Source: a bacterium (GTDB lineage Bacteria > Cyanobacteriota > Vampirovibrionia > Gastranaerophilales > JBAXKC01). Taken from it: a stretch of 64,000 nucleotides of DNA. The DNA is taken from NCBI GenBank assembly GCA_037137535.1, contig JBAXKC010000004.1, positions 32,001 through 96,000 of the forward strand, read 5' to 3'. Below, one piece after another: positions 14,996 to 54,698 of this stretch. The first letter of the stretch is position 1, and every line of letters begins with the position of its first letter. The position numbers were made by a program, and so were the translations under genes. The notes beneath the pieces are model-generated. The model was not told the origin of the DNA. It worked only from the letters and a program-made list of their open reading frames with translations, and ran no database searches.

Positions 14996-15227
14996 AATTT
15001 AACCTTTCAATAACCAATAGCCATTTAAAGAGAGATTATACCATTTTTTTTTCAAATACAGTAGTGGGTATAAATTAAAAACTATACAAAGAATATAAAA
15101 CCAACTTAATATACATACAGTACGGCTGTTGAATAAATAAATGTTTATCGTATTATGATTAGAGTGTTTAAGAACTTTGACAAAATATTTATGTAGAATA
15201 GTTTGCCTCAAAAAATTGGTGTTTATC

Positions 15228-15887
15228 ATGGAAAGTCTTATAAAAAATTCTAAAATAGTTACTTCTTTGGAAAATAAAAAAGTTTTCGCAGTTATTAGAG
15301 CTAAAAGTCTTTCAAAAGCTTTGGATATTTCTAATGCTTTGATAGATGGCGGAATAAAAGTCATAGAGCTTTGCATGAATTGCGACTATGATGCAGCAGA
15401 AGCAATTAAGGTGCTTTCAGGAACAAGTGGAATAACCGTTGCGGCAGGCTCAGTTGTAACAGCAGAACAAGCAAACAGAGCCCTTGACGCAGGAGCAACT
15501 TTTATTGCATCACCAGTATTAGAAAACAGAATCATTAAACAATGCAAATGGAGAAAAGTGCCTGTTATTATGGGAGCTTCAACTCCGACAGAAATTTACA
15601 ACGCCTGGAAACTTGGCGTTGACATTATAAAAGTTTATCCTGCAGAACCTCTTGGCGGACCTCTTTATATTAGAAATATTCTTACACCTATGCCCTTCTT
15701 ACGTTTAATGCCAACAGGCGGAGTAAATATTGATAATTTCATCGAATATTTAGAAGCAGGAGCAGCAGCAGTAGGATTAGGGCATACTTTTTACGGCGAA
15801 GAAAGTGACCTTAAAGTAATAACAAAAAAAGCCGAAATAGTTGCAAAACAACTGGATGAATACCTTAAAAATCAAAATAAAGCATGA
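15228..15887 (+). CDS. eda: KDPG/KHG aldolase
   Basis: AVIRA, GASTPTEI, IKVYPA and MPTGGV motifs; start moved to ATG 15228. Confidence 0.9.
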   Translation: MESLIKNSKIVTSLENKKVFAVIRAKSLSKALDISNALIDGGIKVIELCMNCDYDAAEAIKVLSGTSGITVAAGSVVTAEQANRALDAGATFIASPVLENRIIKQCKWRKVPVIMGASTPTEIYNAWKLGVDIIKVYPAEPLGGPLYIRNILTPMPFLRLMPTGGVNIDNFIEYLEAGAAAVGLGHTFYGEESDLKVITKKAEIVAKQLDEYLKNQNKA

Positions 15888-17598: not shown

Positions 17599-18405
17599 AT
17601 GAACAAAACTGTAGAATTTATTCAAAATCAAATTAAAGAACACAATTTCAAACCCGAAACAGCAATTATTTTAGGCTCAGGCCTTGGTGATTTTGCTGAA
17701 AAAATCAACGGTGTAAGAATAAATTTTTCTGACATTCCCGGATTTGCAGCATCTTCAGTGGCAGGACATGCAGGAAAGCTAATTATAGGGGAATTATTCG
17801 GCAAACATGTTCTTGCGATGCAAGGAAGATTTCATTTTTATGAAGGTCACTCCCTTGAAAAAGTTATCTACCCTATCAGAATAATGAAACTTCTCGGAAT
17901 TAAAAACCTTATCGTTACAAACGCAGCCGGTGGTGTAAATACAGAATATAAACCCGGTGATCTTATGGTAATTAATGACCATATTAACTTCATAGGAACA
18001 AATCCATTAATCGGCAAAAACTTTGATGAATTTGGACCTAGATTCCCCGATATGTCAAAAGCATACGCTGATAGTCTGATTGAACTTGCTAACAAATCAG
18101 GTGAAAAACTTGGTATTAAATTGCAAAACGGTGTATATGCTGCTCTTACCGGACCATCATACGAAACACCTGCTGAAATAAGAATGCTTAGACTTTTAGG
18201 AGCTGATGCCGTTGGAATGTCAACTGTTCCTGAAGTTATAGCAGCTAATCACTGCGGAATGAACGTACTGGGCATTTCCTGCATAACAAACATGGCTTGT
18301 GGCATTTTAGACCAACCTTTAAACCATGAAGAAGTTATTGAAACATCAAACATGGCAAAAGCTTCTTTCATCGGGCTAATAAGTGAAGTAATAAAAAATA
18401 TTTAA
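17599..18405 (+). CDS. punA: Purine nucleoside phosphorylase (trimeric type)
   Basis: ILGSGLG, GRFHFYEG, GPSYETPAE and GMSTVPE motifs. Confidence 0.95.
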   Translation: MNKTVEFIQNQIKEHNFKPETAIILGSGLGDFAEKINGVRINFSDIPGFAASSVAGHAGKLIIGELFGKHVLAMQGRFHFYEGHSLEKVIYPIRIMKLLGIKNLIVTNAAGGVNTEYKPGDLMVINDHINFIGTNPLIGKNFDEFGPRFPDMSKAYADSLIELANKSGEKLGIKLQNGVYAALTGPSYETPAEIRMLRLLGADAVGMSTVPEVIAANHCGMNVLGISCITNMACGILDQPLNHEEVIETSNMAKASFIGLISEVIKNI

Positions 18406-18433
18406 GTTTTGTAAACTTATTAATATAAAATCC

Positions 18434-18460
18434 TAAAGTTTTAAGGAGAGAGGTCGATAA
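18434..18460 (+). promoter_or_regulatory. Sigma-28 (FliA/SigD)-type promoter, unit 1
   Basis: TAAA-N15-GTCGATAA, one mismatch to the TAAA-N15-GCCGATAA consensus. Confidence 0.7.
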
Positions 18461-18467
18461 ATAATAT

Positions 18468-18543
18468 ATAGACCAAACAAATGGTCATACCCCAACCTCC
18501 TCCCCAAAGTCTGGTAGCCGCCCAAAAAGGTGGCTTTTATTTT
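18468..18543 (+). ncRNA. Candidate anti-SD small RNA, copy 1
   Basis: Between promoter and terminator: GACCA/TGGTC hairpin, TACCCCAA-CCTCCTCCCC, then AGCCGCC/GGTGGCT hairpin and T-tract. Confidence 0.65.
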
Positions 18544-18594
18544 GCCTTTTTTTAGACTCGCATTAAGTTTTGTTAACAAACTAAAATAAAACCC

Positions 18595-18621
18595 TAAAGT
18601 TTTTTAAAAAACTGCCGATAA
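18595..18621 (+). promoter_or_regulatory. Sigma-28-type promoter, unit 2
   Basis: Perfect TAAA-N15-GCCGATAA, preceded by the palindrome TTTGTTAACAAA. Confidence 0.8.
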
Positions 18622-18628
18622 ATATTAC

Positions 18629-18704
18629 ATAGACCAAACAAATGGTCATACCCCAACCTCCTCCCCAAAGTCTGGTAGCCGCCCAATAAGGTGGCTTTTA
18701 TTTT
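18629..18704 (+). ncRNA. Candidate anti-SD small RNA, copy 2
   Basis: Same core as copy 1; differs only in the terminator loop. Confidence 0.65.
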
Positions 18705-18755
18705 GCCTTTTTTTAGACTCGCATTAAGTTTTGTTAACAAACTAAAATAAAACCC

Positions 18756-18782
18756 TAAAGTTTTTTAAAAAACTGCCGATAA
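18756..18782 (+). promoter_or_regulatory. Sigma-28-type promoter, unit 3
   Basis: Perfect TAAA-N15-GCCGATAA. Confidence 0.8.
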
Positions 18783-18789
18783 ATATTAC

Positions 18790-18865
18790 ATAGACCAAAC
18801 AAATGGTCATACCCCAACCTCCTCCCCAAAGTCTGGTAGCCGCCCAATAAGGTGGCTTTTATTTT
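18790..18865 (+). ncRNA. Candidate anti-SD small RNA, copy 3
   Basis: Identical to copy 2. Confidence 0.65.
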
Positions 18866-19046
18866 GCGTTTTTTTATACAAATATCATGCCAAATACATA
18901 GTGATTAAACTGTTTTTTACAATATAACTACTTAAATTATAGATATAAGACAAAAAAGGATATCTTGTAAAATCATGGACAATTATTTTATACAATAATT
19001 AGAGCAACTACTAATTGTTTTTAAACCAACTAATAGGAGAAAAATA

Positions 19047-19763
19047 ATGGCATTTAAAATGGAAAAAATGACAGAAGCAGATATAGCGTACTATAACTCA
19101 TTTGAATTTAAAAACGTTGCTTTTGGCAGTATAAAATATGACCCTCCGTTATTACCTCCACCACGAAACTTTGTAGTTGAGGAGGGGGTAGGAATAAGCA
19201 CAACTGCTTGGATCGTAGATAAAGAACGCAATGCATTTGTACGAGGAGTAGGAGGTGGGGGACATGGAATGCCTGAATTTCAAGTCCTTGTATGGAACGG
19301 TGACGTAATAATATGTTCTTTTTATGAAAAATATACGAAGAATCTTAAGGAGTTTAATTTCTGGTGGATTCAAGCACCAAAGCACCTTCAGAGCGAAGAA
19401 AACAGTAAAGAAATAATAAATATGATAAAAGAAGCTCTTATTCTTGAAGGTACAGGAATTAGCATACCGGCAGGCGCTTTAAATGATCAAGATTATGCCT
19501 GGCTTTACTCTATAGAGTTTAATAATGAAAAACCTTTGACTGGGCTTGTTTCTACAAAAGAATTGAAAAAAGACGACCCTGAAATAAAAAGTAAAATAAA
19601 GCAGGTACTTGAGAAGTGTATAAATAATCCTGACGTTCCTCAAGATTTATTAGAAACTCAAAATTATTCATTAAAACCAAAAAAATTCACTTTTAATGAA
19701 ATGGGAGTAGGATTCCGCCTTAATCCTCAAGATTATAAAAATAATTATATGCTTAGGGATTAA
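19047..19763 (+). CDS. Hypothetical protein
   Basis: 238-aa ORF with AGGAG RBS; no family confidently recognised. Confidence 0.8.
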   Translation: MAFKMEKMTEADIAYYNSFEFKNVAFGSIKYDPPLLPPPRNFVVEEGVGISTTAWIVDKERNAFVRGVGGGGHGMPEFQVLVWNGDVIICSFYEKYTKNLKEFNFWWIQAPKHLQSEENSKEIINMIKEALILEGTGISIPAGALNDQDYAWLYSIEFNNEKPLTGLVSTKELKKDDPEIKSKIKQVLEKCINNPDVPQDLLETQNYSLKPKKFTFNEMGVGFRLNPQDYKNNYMLRD

Positions 19764-19804: not shown

Positions 19805-22423
19805 TTAAAACTTTTTTAACTTTGCAAATTTAGCATCTAAAGGCTTTAAACCTAATTTACCAAAATCAATATTATACATAATGTCCGACCCAAACTCTAA
19901 AACCTCTTTAACAGAGCCTATTCCGTATTTTTCATGAAAAACTCTATCACCTGCGTTAAAAAGCTCAAGTTTTTCTTCTTTTTCAATAGTAGCAACATAT
20001 TGTTCTGCTTTTTGTTGAATACCAAGTTGAAGCTGAAGATTTTCCGTCAAATGAGGTTTAACTTCTTCTAAGGAAGCCGCTTTAGGCTGTGAAGGAAGTT
20101 CTTTTTTCTCCTGTATTTTTTGTGTTAATTTAACAGGCTCAGGAGTTTTTTGAACGAAACTACTTTTAACAACAGGCTTTACAGGAGTTGGAGGTTTAAA
20201 GGCAGGGAGCTTATTAGTTGAACTAATAGGGGAATTAATATTATTTGAAGGTGCTTTATTCGCGGATTTAGGAGGAACAAAACTTTTTCCAAACCCTGAC
20301 GATGAAGGTAATTTTTCATAAGACGATGACAAAGGTTTGAAGCCACCACCAAAAGAACCTGACGGCTCAACTTTTCCATAATTATTTTCATAAGCGGATT
20401 TATGCCCATAAGAAGAATTAGCTTGCTCATTATTACGTCTTGAAGTAGAACCTCTGCTCATATCAGCTTCAAAAAGATGCTCTGGAATTTCTTCTAAAAA
20501 TCTACTCTTAGTGTAATATTTGTAATCACCATAAATAAGTCTTCTCTTTGCGTTAGTCATATAAAGAAGGTCTTCAGCTCTTGTTATACCTACATACATC
20601 AAGCGTCTTTCTTCTTCCATTTCATTTGTATCGTTTAATGAACGGGAATGAGGGAATATTCCTTCTTCAAGACCTGCTAAAAAGACAGCAGGAAATTCAA
20701 GACCTTTTGCCGCATGAAGTGTCATAAGAGTAACGCTTTCTTTTTCTTCTTCGAGCTGGTCAATATCGCTTACAAGAGCAACTTGAGAAAGAAACTCACC
20801 AAGATCATTACCGTTTTCTGTCTGTTCAAAGTTTCTGGCAACACTTACAAATTCCTGCAAGTTTTCAATTCTGCTTTCGGCTTCGTCTGTACCTTCTTCT
20901 TTCAGTTCATTAATATAACCTGTCGATTCAATTAAAGAAGCAATAAATTCGCTTAAACGCATTGTATTAAGTTTTTCTCTATATCCTGCAATTATTTTTG
21001 CAAAATCTTTTAATGCCTTTACTGTTTTTGCAGAGAAATTTTCTTCTTCCTCAATATTTTCAACAATGGAAAAAACGGTAGATTTCTTTGCTTTTGCTTT
21101 TTCATCAAGTTTTTTGATAGTTGTAGCACCGATAGAGCGTGCCGGAACATTAATTATTCTTTTTAAACTCTGTGAATCATTGGTGTTATATATTAATTTA
21201 AGATAAGAAACAATATCTTTAATTTCTTTTCGCTCATAGAACTTCATCCCACCAACCATAGTATAAGGAATACTTTTGGACATGAACGCTTCTTCTATAA
21301 CACGACTTTGTGCGTTTGTTCTGTATAATACGACACAATCCTTGTATTTATAGCCGTTTACAAGCAAATCTCTTATTTTACCTACAAGATAATATGCTTC
21401 TTCCTGTTCGTCATTAGCTTCAAAATAGCGTATGCTCTTACCTTTACCCTTATTTGAAACAAGCTTTTTATCAATCCTTTGGCTGTTATTTTGAATAACA
21501 TAATTCGCAGCCTGAAGAATTGTATCGGTAGAACGGTAATTTTGCTCAAGTTTAATAATGTCGGAAGTAGGATAATCTCTCTGAAAATTAAGAATAATCT
21601 TATAATCAGCACCACGCCAGCTGTAAATAGATTGGTCGACATCACCTACTACGCATAAACTTCTTTTTTTGAAGTCAGGCTTTTCATTTCCACCTGAAAA
21701 TAAACTTGAAATAAGTCTGTATTGCGCAAGGTTAGTATCCTGATACTCGTCAACCAGTATATGTTTAAATCTGTTATGATATTTCTGCAAAACTTCCGGA
21801 CATTTAGTAAGCAAATTTACAGACATTAAAAGTAAATCATCAAAATCTAAAGCGTTATTGGTTGATAACATTTGCTCATAGGTAATATAAAGCTTTGAAA
21901 TTATTTCAGCTCTATAGTCTTTAGCTTTTGTAGCATAAGTAAAGGCATTCTGCATTTTATTTTTTGCCATACTTATAGCCGCTTGAACCATTTTAGGCTG
22001 ATAAACCTTCTCATCGAGATTATCAGCTTTTATTGCCTGTTTAATAAGACTTGAACTGTCATTTGAGTCAAAAATAACAAAGTTTTTTTGCCATGTCTGA
22101 CCATCTTCATTTTTATAATTTTCTATATCATATCTTAAAATACGCCCGCAAATATTGTGAAACGTACCTACCCAAAGATTTTTAACTATATCTTCACCTA
22201 AAATAGCGGTAAGACGAGATTTCATTTCTTTTGCAGCTTTATTGGTAAAGGTTACCGCCAAAATTTCATGCGGATTAACGCCCTTTTTAATTAAATAAGC
22301 GATTCTACTTGTTAATACTTTTGTTTTTCCGCTTCCTGCACCTGCAAGAACCAGCAAAGCACCTTCATCATGAGCTACTGCTTCTTTTTGTTGGGGATTT
22401 AACCCGTTTATAATCTCTTCCAT
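19805..22423 (-). CDS. pcrA: ATP-dependent DNA helicase PcrA/UvrD
   Basis: AGAGSGKT, VDEYQDTN, VGDVDQSIY, LEQNYRS, HAAKGLEF and YVGITRA motifs; C-terminal Tudor-like VFHEKYGIG. Confidence 0.96.
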   Translation of the reverse strand: MEEIINGLNPQQKEAVAHDEGALLVLAGAGSGKTKVLTSRIAYLIKKGVNPHEILAVTFTNKAAKEMKSRLTAILGEDIVKNLWVGTFHNICGRILRYDIENYKNEDGQTWQKNFVIFDSNDSSSLIKQAIKADNLDEKVYQPKMVQAAISMAKNKMQNAFTYATKAKDYRAEIISKLYITYEQMLSTNNALDFDDLLLMSVNLLTKCPEVLQKYHNRFKHILVDEYQDTNLAQYRLISSLFSGGNEKPDFKKRSLCVVGDVDQSIYSWRGADYKIILNFQRDYPTSDIIKLEQNYRSTDTILQAANYVIQNNSQRIDKKLVSNKGKGKSIRYFEANDEQEEAYYLVGKIRDLLVNGYKYKDCVVLYRTNAQSRVIEEAFMSKSIPYTMVGGMKFYERKEIKDIVSYLKLIYNTNDSQSLKRIINVPARSIGATTIKKLDEKAKAKKSTVFSIVENIEEEENFSAKTVKALKDFAKIIAGYREKLNTMRLSEFIASLIESTGYINELKEEGTDEAESRIENLQEFVSVARNFEQTENGNDLGEFLSQVALVSDIDQLEEEKESVTLMTLHAAKGLEFPAVFLAGLEEGIFPHSRSLNDTNEMEEERRLMYVGITRAEDLLYMTNAKRRLIYGDYKYYTKSRFLEEIPEHLFEADMSRGSTSRRNNEQANSSYGHKSAYENNYGKVEPSGSFGGGFKPLSSSYEKLPSSSGFGKSFVPPKSANKAPSNNINSPISSTNKLPAFKPPTPVKPVVKSSFVQKTPEPVKLTQKIQEKKELPSQPKAASLEEVKPHLTENLQLQLGIQQKAEQYVATIEKEEKLELFNAGDRVFHEKYGIGSVKEVLEFGSDIMYNIDFGKLGLKPLDAKFAKLKKF

Positions 22424-41060: not shown

Positions 41061-41492
41061 ATGGTAAGTGGAATTAACAGTCAGCAATATCAAACAGGAC
41101 AAATACAAGGACATCACAAACACAAAAATCCACAGGATATGTTCAATGATTTATCTAAAGATGTTGGTGCTGATGGAACAGGAATTAGTGAAGATCAATT
41201 ACAAACAGCTCTTAAAGAGGCTCAATCAAATGGAGATACCAGAAAAACCAAAATGCTCGGAAGAATGATTGAGGATTTTGATAAACTTTCAGGTGGCAGC
41301 GATAAAATAACAGCCGATAGTATGCAAAAAGCTATGGAATCAATGAGAGGTCATCGTAGACAAGCACCTCAAACTTCTTCAGCAAAAGGTAATTGCCAGC
41401 CATGTTCTAACTGCGGCAGTTGCGGAAAAACTCAAGATCCAAGCACAGTAACTTCTGATCAGCTTAAATTTCCTATTGATATAAGAGTATAA
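41061..41492 (+). CDS. Small hypothetical protein with EF-hand-like loops and CxxCxxCxxC
   Basis: DGTGISEDQL, DKLSGGSDKIT and CQPCSNCGSC; GGGGAG RBS. Confidence 0.75.
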   Translation: MVSGINSQQYQTGQIQGHHKHKNPQDMFNDLSKDVGADGTGISEDQLQTALKEAQSNGDTRKTKMLGRMIEDFDKLSGGSDKITADSMQKAMESMRGHRRQAPQTSSAKGNCQPCSNCGSCGKTQDPSTVTSDQLKFPIDIRV

Positions 41493-41663: not shown

Positions 41664-44300
41664 TTGTGGGTTAGAGAGACTTTGAAAAATACAAAAAAAA
41701 GAAAAAAAAGAAAGCTATTATTAAAATTGCTAATTTGGATTTTAATGCTTGTTAGCTTTTCCTTGATTTTAATGAGTATATTTTTAGGAAATATTAGTCA
41801 AAACAATCTTTTAGATACAAGTAAATCATTAAGTGACATGAGTGTTAATTCCGTCCAAAAAACAGGTAATAACATGATAGATGTAACTGAAGGAGTTATG
41901 TCTAAAACAAATACTGATTCCATGAATCTAAGCAGCAAAACCCTTACAGAAACATCTAACTCTCTAGTAAAAGAAAGCAAATCATCAATAGAAGATATTA
42001 GTTCAAAATTAACCAATTTAAGTCATGATAAAATGAATCAGACAAATCATGACATACTGGCTGTAACAGAAAAAGCTATAAAAAACACAGGTGATTCTTT
42101 AATAAATACAAGTCAAAATTATTTAATTGAGGCTGTTACTGACAAAAATAAAAAAGAAGCAGATGAAGTTTCAGGGCAAATTTCTAATTCTATTGGAAAT
42201 TGTATGGATATCCTTGAAATGATAACTAAATTTAAAGATATAAAAAATTTAACTGCTGAAAGTGTCCAATATTTCATTACTTCAGCACAAAAAAGTTATA
42301 TGGTATTAACAAATATTTCCGTTGCAAATAAAACAGGTGATGAAATTGCAAAAGTATCAACCGATGAAGTTGTTACGACAACTGATTTAAAAAACATATC
42401 CACAAATCAAGCATTTGAATCGGCAGTTAAAGGGAAAAAATATATTTCGGAAGTAAAAACAAAACTAGGTTATTCATATGTTACTGTCGGTATCCCAATT
42501 TGGCAATATCCTGGTAGAACATCTGGAGCTTTAATTGCAGATATAAGGCTATCTAATATTACTGAACTTGTAAGTAAAAAACAGATTGGTAAAACAGGAT
42601 TTTGTTTTGTAGTGGATGATAATGGAAAGATTCTTTTCCATCCAAACAGACAAATTAATATTAACGCTTCTGACCTTTTATCTTTAAATAATGAAAAATT
42701 AAAATATAAAATTTTTAAAATCAATTCGAATACAGAGGTTTTAGCTGTTGCATCAAACGTAAAAGCACTTAATAGTAAAGTAATAGTAGTACAGCCAACT
42801 ACTGAAGCATTTAAAGCAGCAGAAGAAATGGAAACAGTTGTACAAAAACAAACAATTCATACATTAAAACTTATGAATTTATCCTCTAATCATGGATTAA
42901 AAATTGCACTTAAAATTATGAATGATGAAGCAAAAAAAGCTGCTTCTGAAAGAGCAATAAAAATGACGCAAAAAACCACTAAAGATATAAATTCAGCTGT
43001 AAATACGTTAAAAGATTCAAGCAAAAAATCTTTAAATTCAGCTTTAAATAATTTAAGACCAATTGCAAAAAATCAATCAGAAAGTGTTTTAAAGGAAATT
43101 CAAGAACAATCAAAGGGTAAAATAATAAAATCAGAAGAAAAAATAGTGTCCCATACTGTAATTTTATTATTCATATTCCTTGCCATATCTTCAGTTATTG
43201 CCGTTTATATGGCAAAAAATATTGCAAATCCAATACAAAATCTTACTCAGGTCGCAGATAAAATTGCTAAAGATGACCTTTCAGGTGAAATACAAATTGA
43301 AGACAGAGAAGAAGAAGAAATTGATAATCTTTATAATACCTTTAACAATATGCAGCATAATTTAAAAGGCATAATTTCTAAAATAGCATCTAATGCTGAA
43401 AATGTATCCTCTTCTTCTAAAGAATTAACTACAATAACTGCTGAATCGAGCAAAGAAATCGAAAATATTGTTATAGCTATTCAAAATGTGGCAAATGGTG
43501 CAAAAAATCAGTTAGACTTATCAGAAAATACAAAAACTATAGCCTATAAAATAGCAGAAGAAAGCCTGCAAATAAAAACAACTACAACAGCGGTTATTGA
43601 TTCATCTAATATAGCAAATGACAAAGCTCTTTTTGGAAGTAAAGTATTAAATGAACTTGTCATCCAAATGAATGTTATTAACGAAAAAATCAACTATTCG
43701 GGAGAAATTGTTAATGTACTTGAAAAGCAGGCAGAGCAAATCAATAAAATTATTGAAATGATTACCTCTATTTCAGAACAAACCAACCTTTTATCACTAA
43801 ATGCAGCAATAGAAGCCGCAAGAGCCGGTGAAAACGGAAAAGGTTTTGCGGTTGTAGCTGATGAAGTAAGAAAGTTAGCAACTCTATCAAAGAAATCAGC
43901 TGGAGAAGTTAATACCGTTATCTCTGAAATTAAAAAAGAAATTGCTAATGTCGTTAATTCTATTAAAGATGGAAGTACAGCAGTAAAATCCGGATTAGAA
44001 AAAACAAATGATGCTAATACATCTTTTAAAGATATTATAAACTCCTTTAAAGATGTTTCATCGCAGGTAAGTAACGTCTCTGAATTAATTATTAATATTA
44101 ATACAGGAATACAGGAGATGGTAGGGAAAATAAATACCATATCTGAAATATCAAAAATAGCCTCAGATAAAACACATGATGTTGTTTCTTCAGTTGAGGA
44201 ACAGAATGCATCGATGGAAGAAATTGCAGGAACGGCGTCAATGCTTTCTCAAATGTCTTCAGATTTAATAAATGTAGTAAAATCATTCAAGTTAAACTAA
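41664..44300 (+). CDS. Methyl-accepting chemotaxis protein (dCache + HAMP)
   Basis: Two TMs; Cache [53 protein letters not shown]. Exact start uncertain. Confidence 0.95.
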
Positions 44301-52430: not shown

Positions 52431-52666
52431 TGTTTTCTCCTTGATATTAACGGAAAATTCTTTTATAACTACCAGCTGAAGATTAGTTTAAAACAAAAAA
52501 ACTTCTAATAAAAGAAGTTTATGCTCTTCAAAAATAGAATAAAAAAAAATAGGCTGAGATACAAGCTAATTTTTTTTAAAATAAAGATTTTACTAAGATT
52601 TTAATTAAGCTGTTTTTTTGTTATTAAATAAGTATGGTTATAGCTTTAAATAAAAGGAATTTGCAG

Positions 52667-53908
52667 ATGACAAGTATCTATGTAATCGAAGTAGAAGGTC
52701 ACATTATAGACTCTCTAACATTACCAAAAATTATGGATACAATCCTTGATATGGGTGCCAGTTATAACATTGAAGATATTAAAATAGGCAATAAAAAAGA
52801 AGAATCATCATATGCAAGATTATGTATATCTGCTGAAGATGATGAAATAATGTCAAAAATACTTGAAAAAGTAACAAAACAGGGCGCAACACTTCTTAAA
52901 GAAGAAAATGTTACTTTAGGAGAAAGTGTTAAAGACCAAACAATGCCTGATGCTTTTTATTCCACAACAAACTTAAAAACTGATATTTTACTTGACGGAG
53001 AATGGATAGCTGTTGGTGATACCGCTATGGACTGCGGTATTGTTGTTAATACAGAAAATAAAACTGCGAAATGCCTTAAACTCAGCCAAATTAAAAAAGG
53101 CGATAAAATTGTTTTAGGCTATATGGGGGTTAGAGTTCATCCGCTTAAAAAACATGAAGATAAACAAGTTTTTTCTTTTATGGGAAGTGAAGTTTCATCA
53201 GAAAAACCAAAATCCTTGGTTATCAAGAAGATTGCAAAAAGAATGATCGAAATGAAAAAAAATAACGAAGGAAAAATTCTTTTTGTACTTGGGCCTGCCG
53301 TTGTTCATACAAAATCAAGAGAAGCCTTTTCAAAACTTATTGAACTGGGTTATGTCGACTATATGTTTGCAGGAAATGCTCTTGCAACACACGATATAGA
53401 AGCAGCTTTATATGGAACATCCTTAGGTGTCTCACTTGAAGATGGAACTCCTATCACAGGCGGACATTCACACCATTTAAGAGCTATAAATAAGGTCAAT
53501 CAATGCGGAAGTATTAGAAATGCCGTTGAATCAGGCATAGTAAGCAACGGAATTATGCACACCTGTATTAAAAATAATGTTGACTTCGTTTTAGCAGGTT
53601 CAATAAGAGATGACGGACCTTTACCGGAAGTTATAAGAAACTCTGTTGAAGCACAATGCGAAATGAAAAAACGTATCAACAAAGACGTACAAATGACCAT
53701 AATGGTTGCGAGCATGTTACATTCAATAGCAGTCGGCAACCTTTTACCTGCATATGTTGAGACCATATGCGTAGATATAAACCCTGCAGTTGTAACAAAA
53801 CTTGCAGATAGAGGCAGCTTCCAAACAATCGGGCTTGTAACCGATATAGAAGCATTTATGAGAGATCTGGCAGAATGTATTTCCGAGGAGACGAAAAACA
53901 ATGCATGA
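52667..53908 (+). CDS. TIGR00300-like LOR/SDH + ornithine cyclodeaminase protein (C-terminal part of AgrE/ArgZ)
   Basis: EGHIIDS, FYSTTN, FSFMGSEVSSEK, GNALATHDIE, LAGSIRDDGP and KLADRGS motifs. Confidence 0.85.
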   Translation: MTSIYVIEVEGHIIDSLTLPKIMDTILDMGASYNIEDIKIGNKKEESSYARLCISAEDDEIMSKILEKVTKQGATLLKEENVTLGESVKDQTMPDAFYSTTNLKTDILLDGEWIAVGDTAMDCGIVVNTENKTAKCLKLSQIKKGDKIVLGYMGVRVHPLKKHEDKQVFSFMGSEVSSEKPKSLVIKKIAKRMIEMKKNNEGKILFVLGPAVVHTKSREAFSKLIELGYVDYMFAGNALATHDIEAALYGTSLGVSLEDGTPITGGHSHHLRAINKVNQCGSIRNAVESGIVSNGIMHTCIKNNVDFVLAGSIRDDGPLPEVIRNSVEAQCEMKKRINKDVQMTIMVASMLHSIAVGNLLPAYVETICVDINPAVVTKLADRGSFQTIGLVTDIEAFMRDLAECISEETKNNA

Positions 53909-54698
53909 ACGAATTTTAATGTGCCCTCCGACCTATTTCAGTATTGATTATGCAATCAATCCATGGATGTCGGAAGAAACAAACTCTGACCTTGAGTTAA
54001 CAAAAAAACAATGGAACAACCTTAAAAGCACTTTAGAAAGTCTTGGTGCTGAAATTGTAGAAATGGAACCACAGCCAAATTTACCAGATCTGGTATTTAC
54101 TGCAAACGCAGCTGTAGTTTATAACAAAATTGCAATAATCAGCCGTTTCAGATTTGAAGAAAGAAGACCTGAAGAGCAATTCTTTGCTGACTGGTTCAGA
54201 AACAATGGATTTATAGTAAGTCTTTTACCTGAAGAAATTTGCTTTGAAGGTGCAGGCGATGCTCTTTTCATTGGTGATACCCTATTTTCAGGACATGCGC
54301 CACGTACAGACATCAACTCACATGCTCATATAGCTAAAATATTTAATATAAATGTTCTGTCTTTAGAGCTTGTAGACAAGAGATTTTACCATATTGACAC
54401 ATGTTTCTGTCCATTAACAGACGGTTATGTGATTTACTTCCCGGGCGCATTTGATGAATATGGCAACAAAGTTATTGAAGCTAATGTACCGCCCGAAAAA
54501 AGAATTGCGGTAACAGAAGAGGAAGCCTGTAAATTCAGCTGTAATGCAGTAAGTTTAGGTAAAAACGTTGTAATGAATAAAACAACTGACAGACTTAAAA
54601 AAGTGCTTGCAGATAAAGGCTTTAACACTCATGAAGTAGATCTTAGCGAATTCCTTAAATCAGGCGGTTCTGCAAAATGTTTAACTTTAAAAGTCTAA
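53901..54698 (+). CDS. Amidinotransferase-fold enzyme (arginine dihydrolase/DDAH-like)
   Basis: LMCPP.YF.IDYAINPWM, PDLVFTAN, FEGAGD, FYHIDTCF and GGSAKCL motifs. Confidence 0.87.
   Translation: MHERILMCPPTYFSIDYAINPWMSEETNSDLELTKKQWNNLKSTLESLGAEIVEMEPQPNLPDLVFTANAAVVYNKIAIISRFRFEERRPEEQFFADWFRNNGFIVSLLPEEICFEGAGDALFIGDTLFSGHAPRTDINSHAHIAKIFNINVLSLELVDKRFYHIDTCFCPLTDGYVIYFPGAFDEYGNKVIEANVPPEKRIAVTEEEACKFSCNAVSLGKNVVMNKTTDRLKKVLADKGFNTHEVDLSEFLKSGGSAKCLTLKV

Follow-up and report, generated by a model that had tools for sequence, protein, structure and literature searches.

What are three near-identical units of 161 bp, set head-to-tail on the + strand directly behind a purine-nucleoside phosphorylase gene, doing in the genome of a non-photosynthetic relative of the cyanobacteria? 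The units lie in a 64,000-nt stretch of a Gastranaerophilales genome (GenBank assembly GCA_037137535.1, contig JBAXKC010000004.1, positions 32,001–96,000), which we call the window and whose own numbering is used below unless another locus is named. Here we propose that each unit by itself would suffice to produce a non-coding small RNA (sRNA) of ~77 nt read from the + strand, and that the array belongs, on the evidence of sequence comparison, to a conserved and previously undescribed sRNA family of the Vampirovibrionia (Melainabacteria), with carriers among both gut-dwelling and predatory members. The fuller reading, in which this is a sigma-28-driven, trans-acting sRNA that pairs through a seed resembling the anti-Shine-Dalgarno sequence with G-rich sites in mRNAs, we regard as rather more probable than improbable.

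A tandem array of putative sRNA genes

Tandem Repeats Finder resolves positions 18402–18876 into one tandem array with a period of 161 bp, 3.0 copies, 93% matches, no indels and a score of 817, in agreement with the three tandem units that an initial annotation of this DNA had proposed. Every unit holds the promoter boxes TAAAGTTT-N11-G(C/T)CGATAA, a GACCA-N6-TGGTC hairpin, the motif ATACCCCAACCTCCTCCCCAAAG, and an AGCCGCC-N6-GGTGGCT hairpin followed by a T-run; CCTCCTCCCC occurs three times in the window, always inside the array and once per unit. With boxes, hairpin, C-rich stretch and + strand terminator present in each unit, the description of the units as self-contained + strand sRNA cassettes holds.

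The promoter of unit 1, which is of the sigma-28 type with one mismatch in its -10 box (TAAAGTTT-N11-GTCGATAA, 18434–18460, + strand), is followed by sRNA copy 1 at 18468–18544 (+), ~77 nt long and predicted to start 7–8 nt past the -10 box. This copy consists of a 5′ hairpin (18471–18486), an unpaired C-rich stretch (18487–18515) that includes a 17-mer, ACCCCAACCTCCTCCCC (18489–18505), and a terminator stem (18516–18535) with its T-run. Unit 2 has the exact sigma-28 consensus TAAAGTTT-N11-GCCGATAA at 18595–18621 (+) and copy 2 at 18629–18705 (+), with the hairpin at 18632–18647, the unpaired stretch at 18648–18676 (17-mer 18650–18666) and the terminator stem and T-run at 18677–18696 and beyond. 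The same promoter recurs in unit 3 (18756–18782, +), where copy 3 (18790–18866, +) is the same as copy 2 (hairpin 18793–18808, 17-mer 18811–18827, terminator stem 18838–18857, then the T-run).

Seventeen of the 18 positions (of 161) at which units 1 and 2 differ lie upstream of the predicted RNA start, nine of them within the promoter spacer, while the eighteenth falls in the terminator loop; none of the changes touches either box, the distance between the boxes, the two stems or the C-rich stretch. Alignment of the units thus confirms what had been noted of unit 1, namely a spacer of its own (it is almost wholly replaced) between conserved boxes at a conserved distance, ahead of a conserved core. 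Units 2 and 3 are identical across 180 nt (18527–18706 = 18688–18867).

Conservation among the Vampirovibrionia

An exact scan of a species-representative genome collection with the 17-mer returned at least 117 loci, and among the matches listed the whole RNA was found at six loci from five genomes: L012 and L041 (two contigs of one Gastranaerophilales genome), L025 and L083 (two further Gastranaerophilales genomes), L072 (Ca. Adamsella avium) and L035 (Vampirovibrio sp.). The 17-mer is also carried by 57 Streptomyces loci among the matches listed (including L002 and L004), presumably as part of a conserved coding segment and hence as coding-sequence noise. To control for chance matches, we scored the 117 listed loci with a covariance model derived solely from the copies of the window; the other 111 loci, all holding the 17-mer, served as controls. 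The model gave 59.9 bits to L072, 57.1 to L012, 56.3 to L041, 55.3 to L083 and 48.6 to L025, against 22.0 bits for the best non-homologous locus (L005), which lacks the hairpins and the terminator. The Vampirovibrio copy, whose score is marginal (see below), we accept as a member because promoter, hairpins and terminator come in the same order when read by eye and folded: the promoter reads CTAAAGTTTT...GTCGATAG, the 5′ hairpin has 10 bp, AAGTC comes after the seed, and a GCUACCG/CGGUAGC terminator with a U-run stands last. The segments GGTCAT, AAGTC and TAGTAGCCG (in the RNA GGUCAU, AAGUC and UAGUAGCCG) are independently conserved flanks. The six loci and their model scores bear out the expectation that the core would be kept in relatives, and the promoter region of the window is most similar to those of L012 and L041. 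No further copy above 14.4 bits was found beyond the nine known ones when the full model was run with filters off on the window and the six loci.

Each locus of the relatives has a single copy, one of the genomes having two such loci, and the tandem triplication is peculiar to the present genome among those seen. The two copies of the L012/L041 genome lie at L012 1–199 and L041 1955–2041, the former 112 nt from its contig end, which suggests that the sRNA gene is multicopy there as well and breaks assemblies.

A search of Rfam, which the initial annotation had called for, matched no family in the window array or in the relatives: at gathering thresholds the whole window yielded tRNA only, and at E ≤ 10 positions 18300–19050 and the six relatives' loci gave sub-threshold matches at chance level, the best being BjrC1505 with 21.4 bits against a gathering threshold of 50 (E 0.12). 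Our literature search found no paper on sRNAs of Melainabacteria, and nothing on flagellar or sigma regulation in Gastranaerophilales. Both searches agree with the earlier statement that no such system has been described in this lineage.

The promoter and its probable sigma factor

The sigma-28 consensus against which we compared the units comprises a -35 element TAAA(GTTT), a 15-nt gap (equal to 11 nt past TAAAGTTT) and the -10 element GCCGATAA; units 2 and 3 agree with it at every position, and the one mismatch of unit 1 lies in GTCGATAA. TAAA-N15-GCCGATAA has two exact matches in the window, those of units 2 and 3, where 0.00 are expected from 100 shuffles. Across the nine copies (three in the window and six at the relatives' loci), TAAAG stands at -35 in all nine and CGATA follows at consensus distance in eight (N15; N16 in L035), with spacers that vary between genomes. 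The A+T-rich boxes are retained even in L035, despite a genome of higher G+C (that of the window is 29–36%). A search for TAAA-N15/16-NYCGATA in 82.8 kb, that is the window and the six loci, found eight sites at sRNA genes and one differently spaced site in a coding region. In format the sRNA promoters equal FliA-bound sites of E. coli, for example that of tar (TAAAGTTT-N11-GCCGATAA), as given in PMC4183435. The exact matches, the footprinting across genomes and this shared format all sustain the original call of a sigma-28 consensus promoter, and as judged from sequence the sRNA units are likely to be under sigma-28 control.

As to flagella themselves, a chemoreceptor gene lies within the window, and in Ca. 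Adamsella avium an open reading frame (ORF) that matches the C-terminus of FliD, the flagellar cap protein (L072 52–522, +), precedes the sRNA copy by 1.5 kb. Some Gastranaerophilales and Vampirovibrio chlorellavorus are reported to be flagellated (PMC3787301, PMC4040986, PMC4451040), and a sigma-28 gene is annotated for V. chlorellavorus in the supplement of PMC4451040; fliA is not mentioned in the main texts of these three papers or in the supplements of PMC3787301 that were examined. A pattern search found no sigma-28 site upstream of the window's chemoreceptor gene.

Several side observations concern DNA-binding proteins and promoter-like sites. A protein with four GntR-type DNA-binding domains is encoded between the FliD ORF and the sRNA copy of L072. 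In the window, a sigma-28-like site, TAAAGTAA-N11-GCCGAAAT, lies at 15812–15837 (+) within a 236-amino-acid (aa) ORF (15177–15887), ~80 nt before the row of sugar kinase, phosphatase and phosphorylase genes that ends at the sRNA array, and could be an internal promoter or a chance match. The initial annotation had also drawn attention to a palindromic box. Short palindromes do exist, but that of unit 1 (AAGTTT-TGT-AAACTT, 18405–18419, read by eye) has another sequence than the perfect 12-nt palindrome TTTGTTAACAAA that lies upstream of the promoter in units 2 (18569–18580) and 3 (18730–18741), where it overlaps a sigma-70-like -35 hexamer, TTAACA; an inverted-repeat search with a minimum arm of 10 detected none of them. 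Among the relatives only L035 has a similar one (TTGTTACAA, ~2101–2109, - strand). In these two distant genomes TTTGTTAACAAA and TTGTTACAA stand 23–25 nt upstream of the TAAAG box, and they could be a regulator's site or a sigma-70 -35 box giving a second, overlapping promoter.

Fold, terminator and coding strand

Intrinsic terminators were predicted on the + strand in all three units (the scan found four sites in all, with 0.7 expected), each with a 7-bp stem that includes five G-C pairs, followed by TTTTATTTT; on folding, a terminator hairpin was also present in all six copies of the relatives. Folded singly, eight of eight RNAs left the C-rich stretch unpaired between a 5′ hairpin and a terminator (z-scores of -2.7 to -5.7 against shuffles), and the mean unpaired probability of the 17-mer was 0.84–0.98 in every one of them, so that the C-rich motif singled out earlier is predicted to be unpaired. 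The hairpin stems themselves vary among genomes (4–8 bp, with loops of GAAA, UUU or longer), to the point that both hairpins of L035 are made of wholly different sequence; the loops of the window copies are AACAAA and CAAUAA. Predicted RNA lengths are 76–92 nt, and the unpaired stretch measures 16–29 nt, a figure that changes with the inclusion or exclusion of a weak outer helix at the base of the terminator.

The terminator also bears on the strand. Its fifth stem pair is G-T, for which the - strand would give an A-C mismatch, and in the nine copies this pair is G-U in five and G-C in four, the one informative column. Such a change is neutral only in an RNA read from the + strand, which argues that the + strand is the RNA. 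The initial annotation had made a similar case from a G-U pair found only on the + strand; the pairing argument stands, though the pair is the fifth of the stem and not, as had been stated, the one that closes it.

A stand-alone gene

The neighbouring genes differ at every locus, and the downstream gene is convergent at four of the five assessable loci of the relatives: L012 (fumarate hydratase), L041 (response regulator), L072 and L025. In L035, as in the window, this gene runs in the same direction as the sRNA, and L083 is too short to judge. Differing flanks and mostly convergent downstream genes point to a stand-alone sRNA gene and not to a leader.

In the window, the stop codon of the upstream gene, for the purine-nucleoside phosphorylase (17599–18405, +), abuts unit 1 with no other terminator after it, and the phosphorylase mRNA probably ends at the terminator of copy 1. 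On the other side, a 238-aa ORF (19047–19763, +) begins 180 nt past the last terminator. It belongs to no Pfam or NCBIfam family, has no relative at E ≤ 0.001 among proteins of 130–417 aa, and gave ESM Atlas leads that were all below 0.9. When the 46 window proteins were compared with the six loci by tblastn, the single match was that of the phosphorylase with L035 (32% identity). The nucleoside phosphorylase-family gene of L035 (174–1013) lies ~1 kb from the sRNA, while that of the window adjoins the array. One unit searched by blastn against plasmid and phage collections gave no match, which speaks against a mobile element. Further along the window, an ArgZ-like arginine dihydrolase, an enzyme family of cyanobacterial type, and then a DDAH-like hydrolase are encoded at 52634–54698 (+). 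This pair would fit a source genome akin to the cyanobacteria, and the ArgZ-like gene, the chemoreceptor gene, the G+C content of 29–36% and the likeness of the promoter region to those of L012 and L041 together suggest an origin in the Vampirovibrionia.

Proposed mode of action

In the mechanism that we propose, polymerase carrying sigma-28 (FliA/SigD family) would start 7–8 nt past GCCGATAA, the intrinsic terminator would end the transcript, and the 5′ and terminator hairpins would hold the C-rich AUACCCCAACCUCCUCCCCAAAG single-stranded between them. This stretch includes ACCUCCU, which has the letters of the anti-Shine-Dalgarno tail of 16S rRNA, and it would pair in trans with G-rich or Shine-Dalgarno (SD) regions in a particular set of mRNAs, which would then be translated less or be less stable. 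Such regulation would link the target mRNAs to the late phase in the expression of flagellar genes, and three gene copies would raise the dose of the RNA. We judge pairing with ribosome-binding or other G-rich sites, the mechanism shown for the similarly shaped RNAs Yfr1 and LhrC (see below), to be the most economical one.

Within the window, 23 of 46 genes have an SD-like purine word of 4–5 nt upstream of the start. Among the initiation regions, the best duplex partner of the seed is the ribosome-binding region ACGGGGAG of ORF 41061–41492 (+), which encodes a Cys-rich protein of 143 aa without a family, just upstream of a dCache/MCP chemoreceptor gene (41664–44300, +). The two best sense-strand seed sites of the whole window both lie in ORF 19047–19763, at 19168–19193 and 19237–19262 (-24.2 and -22.7 kcal/mol); no 20-mers of the + strand are richer in G, and the peptide segments encoded there are GVGGGGHG and EEGVG. 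Of 500 shuffled seeds, 26 and 35 do as well at these two sites, so that the seed beats ~93–95% of them, and the genes beside the other copies (six loci) have no comparable seed sites. The presence of these sites in the adjoining ORF stays an unexplained coincidence.

Evidence against the proposal, and alternatives

Several results weigh against the sigma-28-driven, pairing sRNA proposed above. The blocking of ribosome-binding sites, which the initial annotation had inferred, drew no support from the scan of the window's 46 initiation regions: the best seed duplex, -20.3 kcal/mol at ORF 41061–41492, was equalled by 29 of 200 shuffled seeds. Nor did the covariation analysis that had been suggested support the fold, since on the model-fitted alignment the score was not significant (0.116 against a shuffled mean of 0.131, with 377 of 500 shuffles scoring at least as high); in this alignment, which has fixed columns that cannot register 5′ hairpins of varying length and position and holds only six distinct relatives, just two pairs change on both sides. 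RNAalifold recovered the terminator helix alone. The 17-mer is invariant as a product of the exact-match search and is uncountable as conservation, and L035 reaches only 25.1 bits, barely over the 22.0 of a non-homologous locus. On the side of transcription, the promoter of L025 is weaker (TAAAG-N16-TCCGAATA, one base further off), no fliA is present among the window ORFs of at least 110 aa that were scanned for families, and in units 2 and 3 a sigma-70-like TTAACA-16-TAAAGT overlaps the sigma-28 -35 box.

This last point leads to an unlikely alternative, in which the housekeeping sigma factor transcribes the RNA, with TAAAGT as -10 and TTGTTA or TTAACA as -35; the transcript would start ~20 nt further upstream, GCCGATAA would lie inside the RNA, and the flagellar link would vanish. 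The promoter scan does list TTAACA-16-TAAAGT (9/12 matches) in units 2 and 3, L035 has TTGTTA-N17-TAAAGT (read by eye), and TAAAG is the most conserved upstream block. Yet the promoter-like sites of that scan are at chance level (five found, 3.9 expected), it lists no such pair for unit 1, whose TTGTAA stands 19 nt from TAAAGT, and L072 has TAAAGA, without the final T. Housekeeping transcription would also give no reason for a CGATA at fixed distance in eight of nine copies, or for nine spacer changes that spare both boxes. We give similarly little credence to a decoy or sponge, that is a mimic of the 16S anti-SD in broad competition for ribosome-binding sites, or else a scaffold to which a protein or a G-rich RNA binds. 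Conservation well past CCUCC suggests a longer, specific duplex, each RNA carries one motif where the sponges described in the LhrC paper have repeated ones (PMC4132741), and most SD words of the window are 4–5 nt long, which we infer to be too short for stable competition with ribosomes. What speaks for a decoy is that the seed contains ACCUCCU, that three copies suggest high abundance, and that no specific target stood out in the window scan; the authors of the Yfr1 study considered that their abundant, similarly shaped RNA might bind a protein (PMC2190773), and those of the LhrC study liken its repeated motifs to protein-sequestering RNAs (PMC4132741).

We also consider it improbable that the third copy, or the copy number generally, is an assembly artefact. 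Short-read assemblers usually collapse tandem repeats and do not expand them, the junctions are clean and in register, and the 18 differences of unit 1 imply at least two distinct copies, against which must be set the identity of units 2 and 3 across 180 nt and the L012 copy near its contig end, where assemblers struggle at the sRNA gene. Very unlikely is a cis-acting array of promoters and attenuators that controls ORF 19047–19763 through terminator read-through. That ORF is co-directional, close behind the last terminator, and carries the window's two top-ranking sites of complementarity to the seed, but the downstream gene is convergent at most of the relatives' loci, the ORF has no relative near the other copies or in the protein collection, and every unit closes with a 7-bp, G-C-rich terminator stem and a T-run. 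Finally, a small peptide of 24 aa (MVIPQPPPQSLVAAQKGGFYFAFF) could be read from an ATG at 18482, 18643 and 18804, in a frame that crosses the C-rich stretch in all three units. We find this hardly credible: the ATG lies within the 5′ hairpin with no SD word before it, L072 and L083 have no ATG, GTG or TTG at that position and L025 only TTG, and in six of six copies from the relatives, which lack one A, the frame ends after ~10 codons.

Relation to known sRNAs

By its predicted promoter, the array would join the functional class of sigma-28-dependent sRNAs, which is represented in E. coli by the FliA-dependent UhpU, MotR, FliX and FlgO (PMC10578931) and in Campylobacter jejuni by CJnc170/FlmR (PMC11187230). 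Dependence is a prediction here, the lineage is a different one, and there is no sequence relation to those RNAs (no Rfam match). As described in PMC10578931, the four E. coli RNAs derive from untranslated regions, whereas the sRNAs of the present family are stand-alone in most loci and, in the window, tandem and multicopy. A parallel is E. coli UhpU, whose place at the end of a gene of metabolism recalls that of copy 1 directly behind the phosphorylase gene (for UhpU, the 3′ end); MotR and FliX are reported to pair inside coding sequences, which keeps the coding-region sites of ORF 19047–19763 open as candidates.

In build and phylogeny, the known sRNA nearest to that of the window is Yfr1 of the cyanobacteria, the photosynthetic sister group of its non-photosynthetic hosts. 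According to PMC2190773, Yfr1 has a 5′ stem-loop, a conserved, unpaired pyrimidine-rich stretch with CUCCUC, a GC-rich terminator hairpin and a U-tail, and two stem-loops of this type around an unpaired centre, the 3′ one a terminator, are present in eight of eight folds here. AUAC follows the 5′ hairpin in Yfr1 of MED4 (PMC2190773) as it does in the window sRNA, and Yfr1 is reported to act by sequestering ribosome-binding sites (PMC2796815). The lengths given for Yfr1 in PMC2190773 are 54–69 nt, with an unpaired stretch of 16–20 nt (12–25 relaxed), compared with 76–92 nt, from predicted 5′ ends, and 16–29 nt here. At up to two mismatches, the relaxed search of the Yfr1 authors (PMC2190773), the ultraconserved Yfr1 undecanucleotide ACUCCUCACAC has nine matches in the window but none in 18402–18876, where the best ungapped alignment by eye is 7/11. 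Beyond the sub-threshold hits given above, no Rfam family was matched at E ≤ 10, Yfr1 included, for which Rfam 15 should hold a model. The guaB-yfr1-trxA context of most cyanobacteria (PMC2190773) is absent, with the phosphorylase gene upstream and the ORF without relatives, then pcrA, downstream; in the literature consulted we met with no flagellar-type promoter or tandem copies for Yfr1.

Given that the defining undecanucleotide is absent, we do not class the sRNA with Yfr1, though "works like Yfr1" stays the best analogy. It is doubtful, if conceivable, that the sRNA is the Melainabacterial counterpart of Yfr1, ancient enough to predate the split between photosynthetic and non-photosynthetic lineages and later, in the flagellated branch, brought under flagellar sigma control and multiplied into tandem copies. 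For such kinship there are the shared build, the linker order AUAC...CUCCUC...CAA(A/G)UC and the sister-group relation; against it stand the missing undecanucleotide, the lack of an Rfam match and the ease with which seeds resembling the anti-SD arise independently. As to surroundings, cyanobacterial yfr1 usually lies behind guaB, a gene of purine metabolism, and in Crocosphaera beside pcrA, which in the window is found at 19805–22423; the likeness of the phosphorylase and pcrA neighbourhood to yfr1 loci is possibly a coincidence. A thioredoxin-fold gene lies ~1.2 kb upstream of the sRNA copy of L041, and the neighbours at the other loci are unrelated to the yfr1 context.

The initial annotation had linked the C-rich motif to the cuckoo/CcsR sRNAs of alphaproteobacteria. 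The motif, CCUCCUCCC, is indeed present, but the architecture is not of the cuckoo/CcsR type. The one model match in that direction is the sub-threshold BjrC1505 hit reported above, which we take to be a cuckoo-type RNA. In cuckoo/CcsR RNAs CCUCCUCCC occupies the loops of 2–4 adjacent hairpins with linkers of at most 10 nt (PMC4615179); the window sRNA has one motif, placed in the linker, which is unpaired, spans up to 29 nt and joins two hairpins whose loops are free of it. Shared with cuckoo/CcsR/alpha-r14 RNAs are the motif, tandem homologous copies (CcsR1–4) and non-syntenic family members (PMC4615179, PMC8034643). CcsR1–4 are described in PMC8034643 as lying behind a DUF1127 gene and being cut from one transcript that begins upstream of that gene at an RpoHI/HII (heat-shock sigma) promoter, whereas in the window array every copy comes with a promoter and a terminator of its own.

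The fourth comparison is with LhrC. The genes lhrC1–4 are said to lie in tandem, each with its own promoter. In Listeria monocytogenes, LhrC1–5 bind a G-rich sequence upstream of the start codon and block translation, the copies acting additively (PMC4132741). Membership can be rejected, as LhrC has three UCCC sites, in loop A, the linker and the terminator loop (PMC4132741), and the window sRNA has one, in the linker only. LhrC is under the LisRK two-component system (PMC4132741), and Rfam gives no sequence relation between the two.

Implications

The Vampirovibrionia, or Melainabacteria, include common gut bacteria, and the literature consulted mentions a single member in culture. As far as our Rfam and literature searches show, no regulatory RNA has been described for them, and a conserved, easily recognised sRNA would offer a first handle on post-transcriptional control in this class. 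With its textbook sigma-28 promoter, the sRNA may also help to recognise the late flagellar regulon where genomes are known from metagenomes only, and as a test case of whether sigma-28-driven sRNAs, so far those of E. coli and Campylobacter, are general in flagellar regulation. Through its likeness to Yfr1, it also opens the question of how a pan-cyanobacterial sRNA arose to a direct test. The finding would gain in weight with proof of sigma-28 control, of a target in flagellar or global translational regulation, or of descent from Yfr1.

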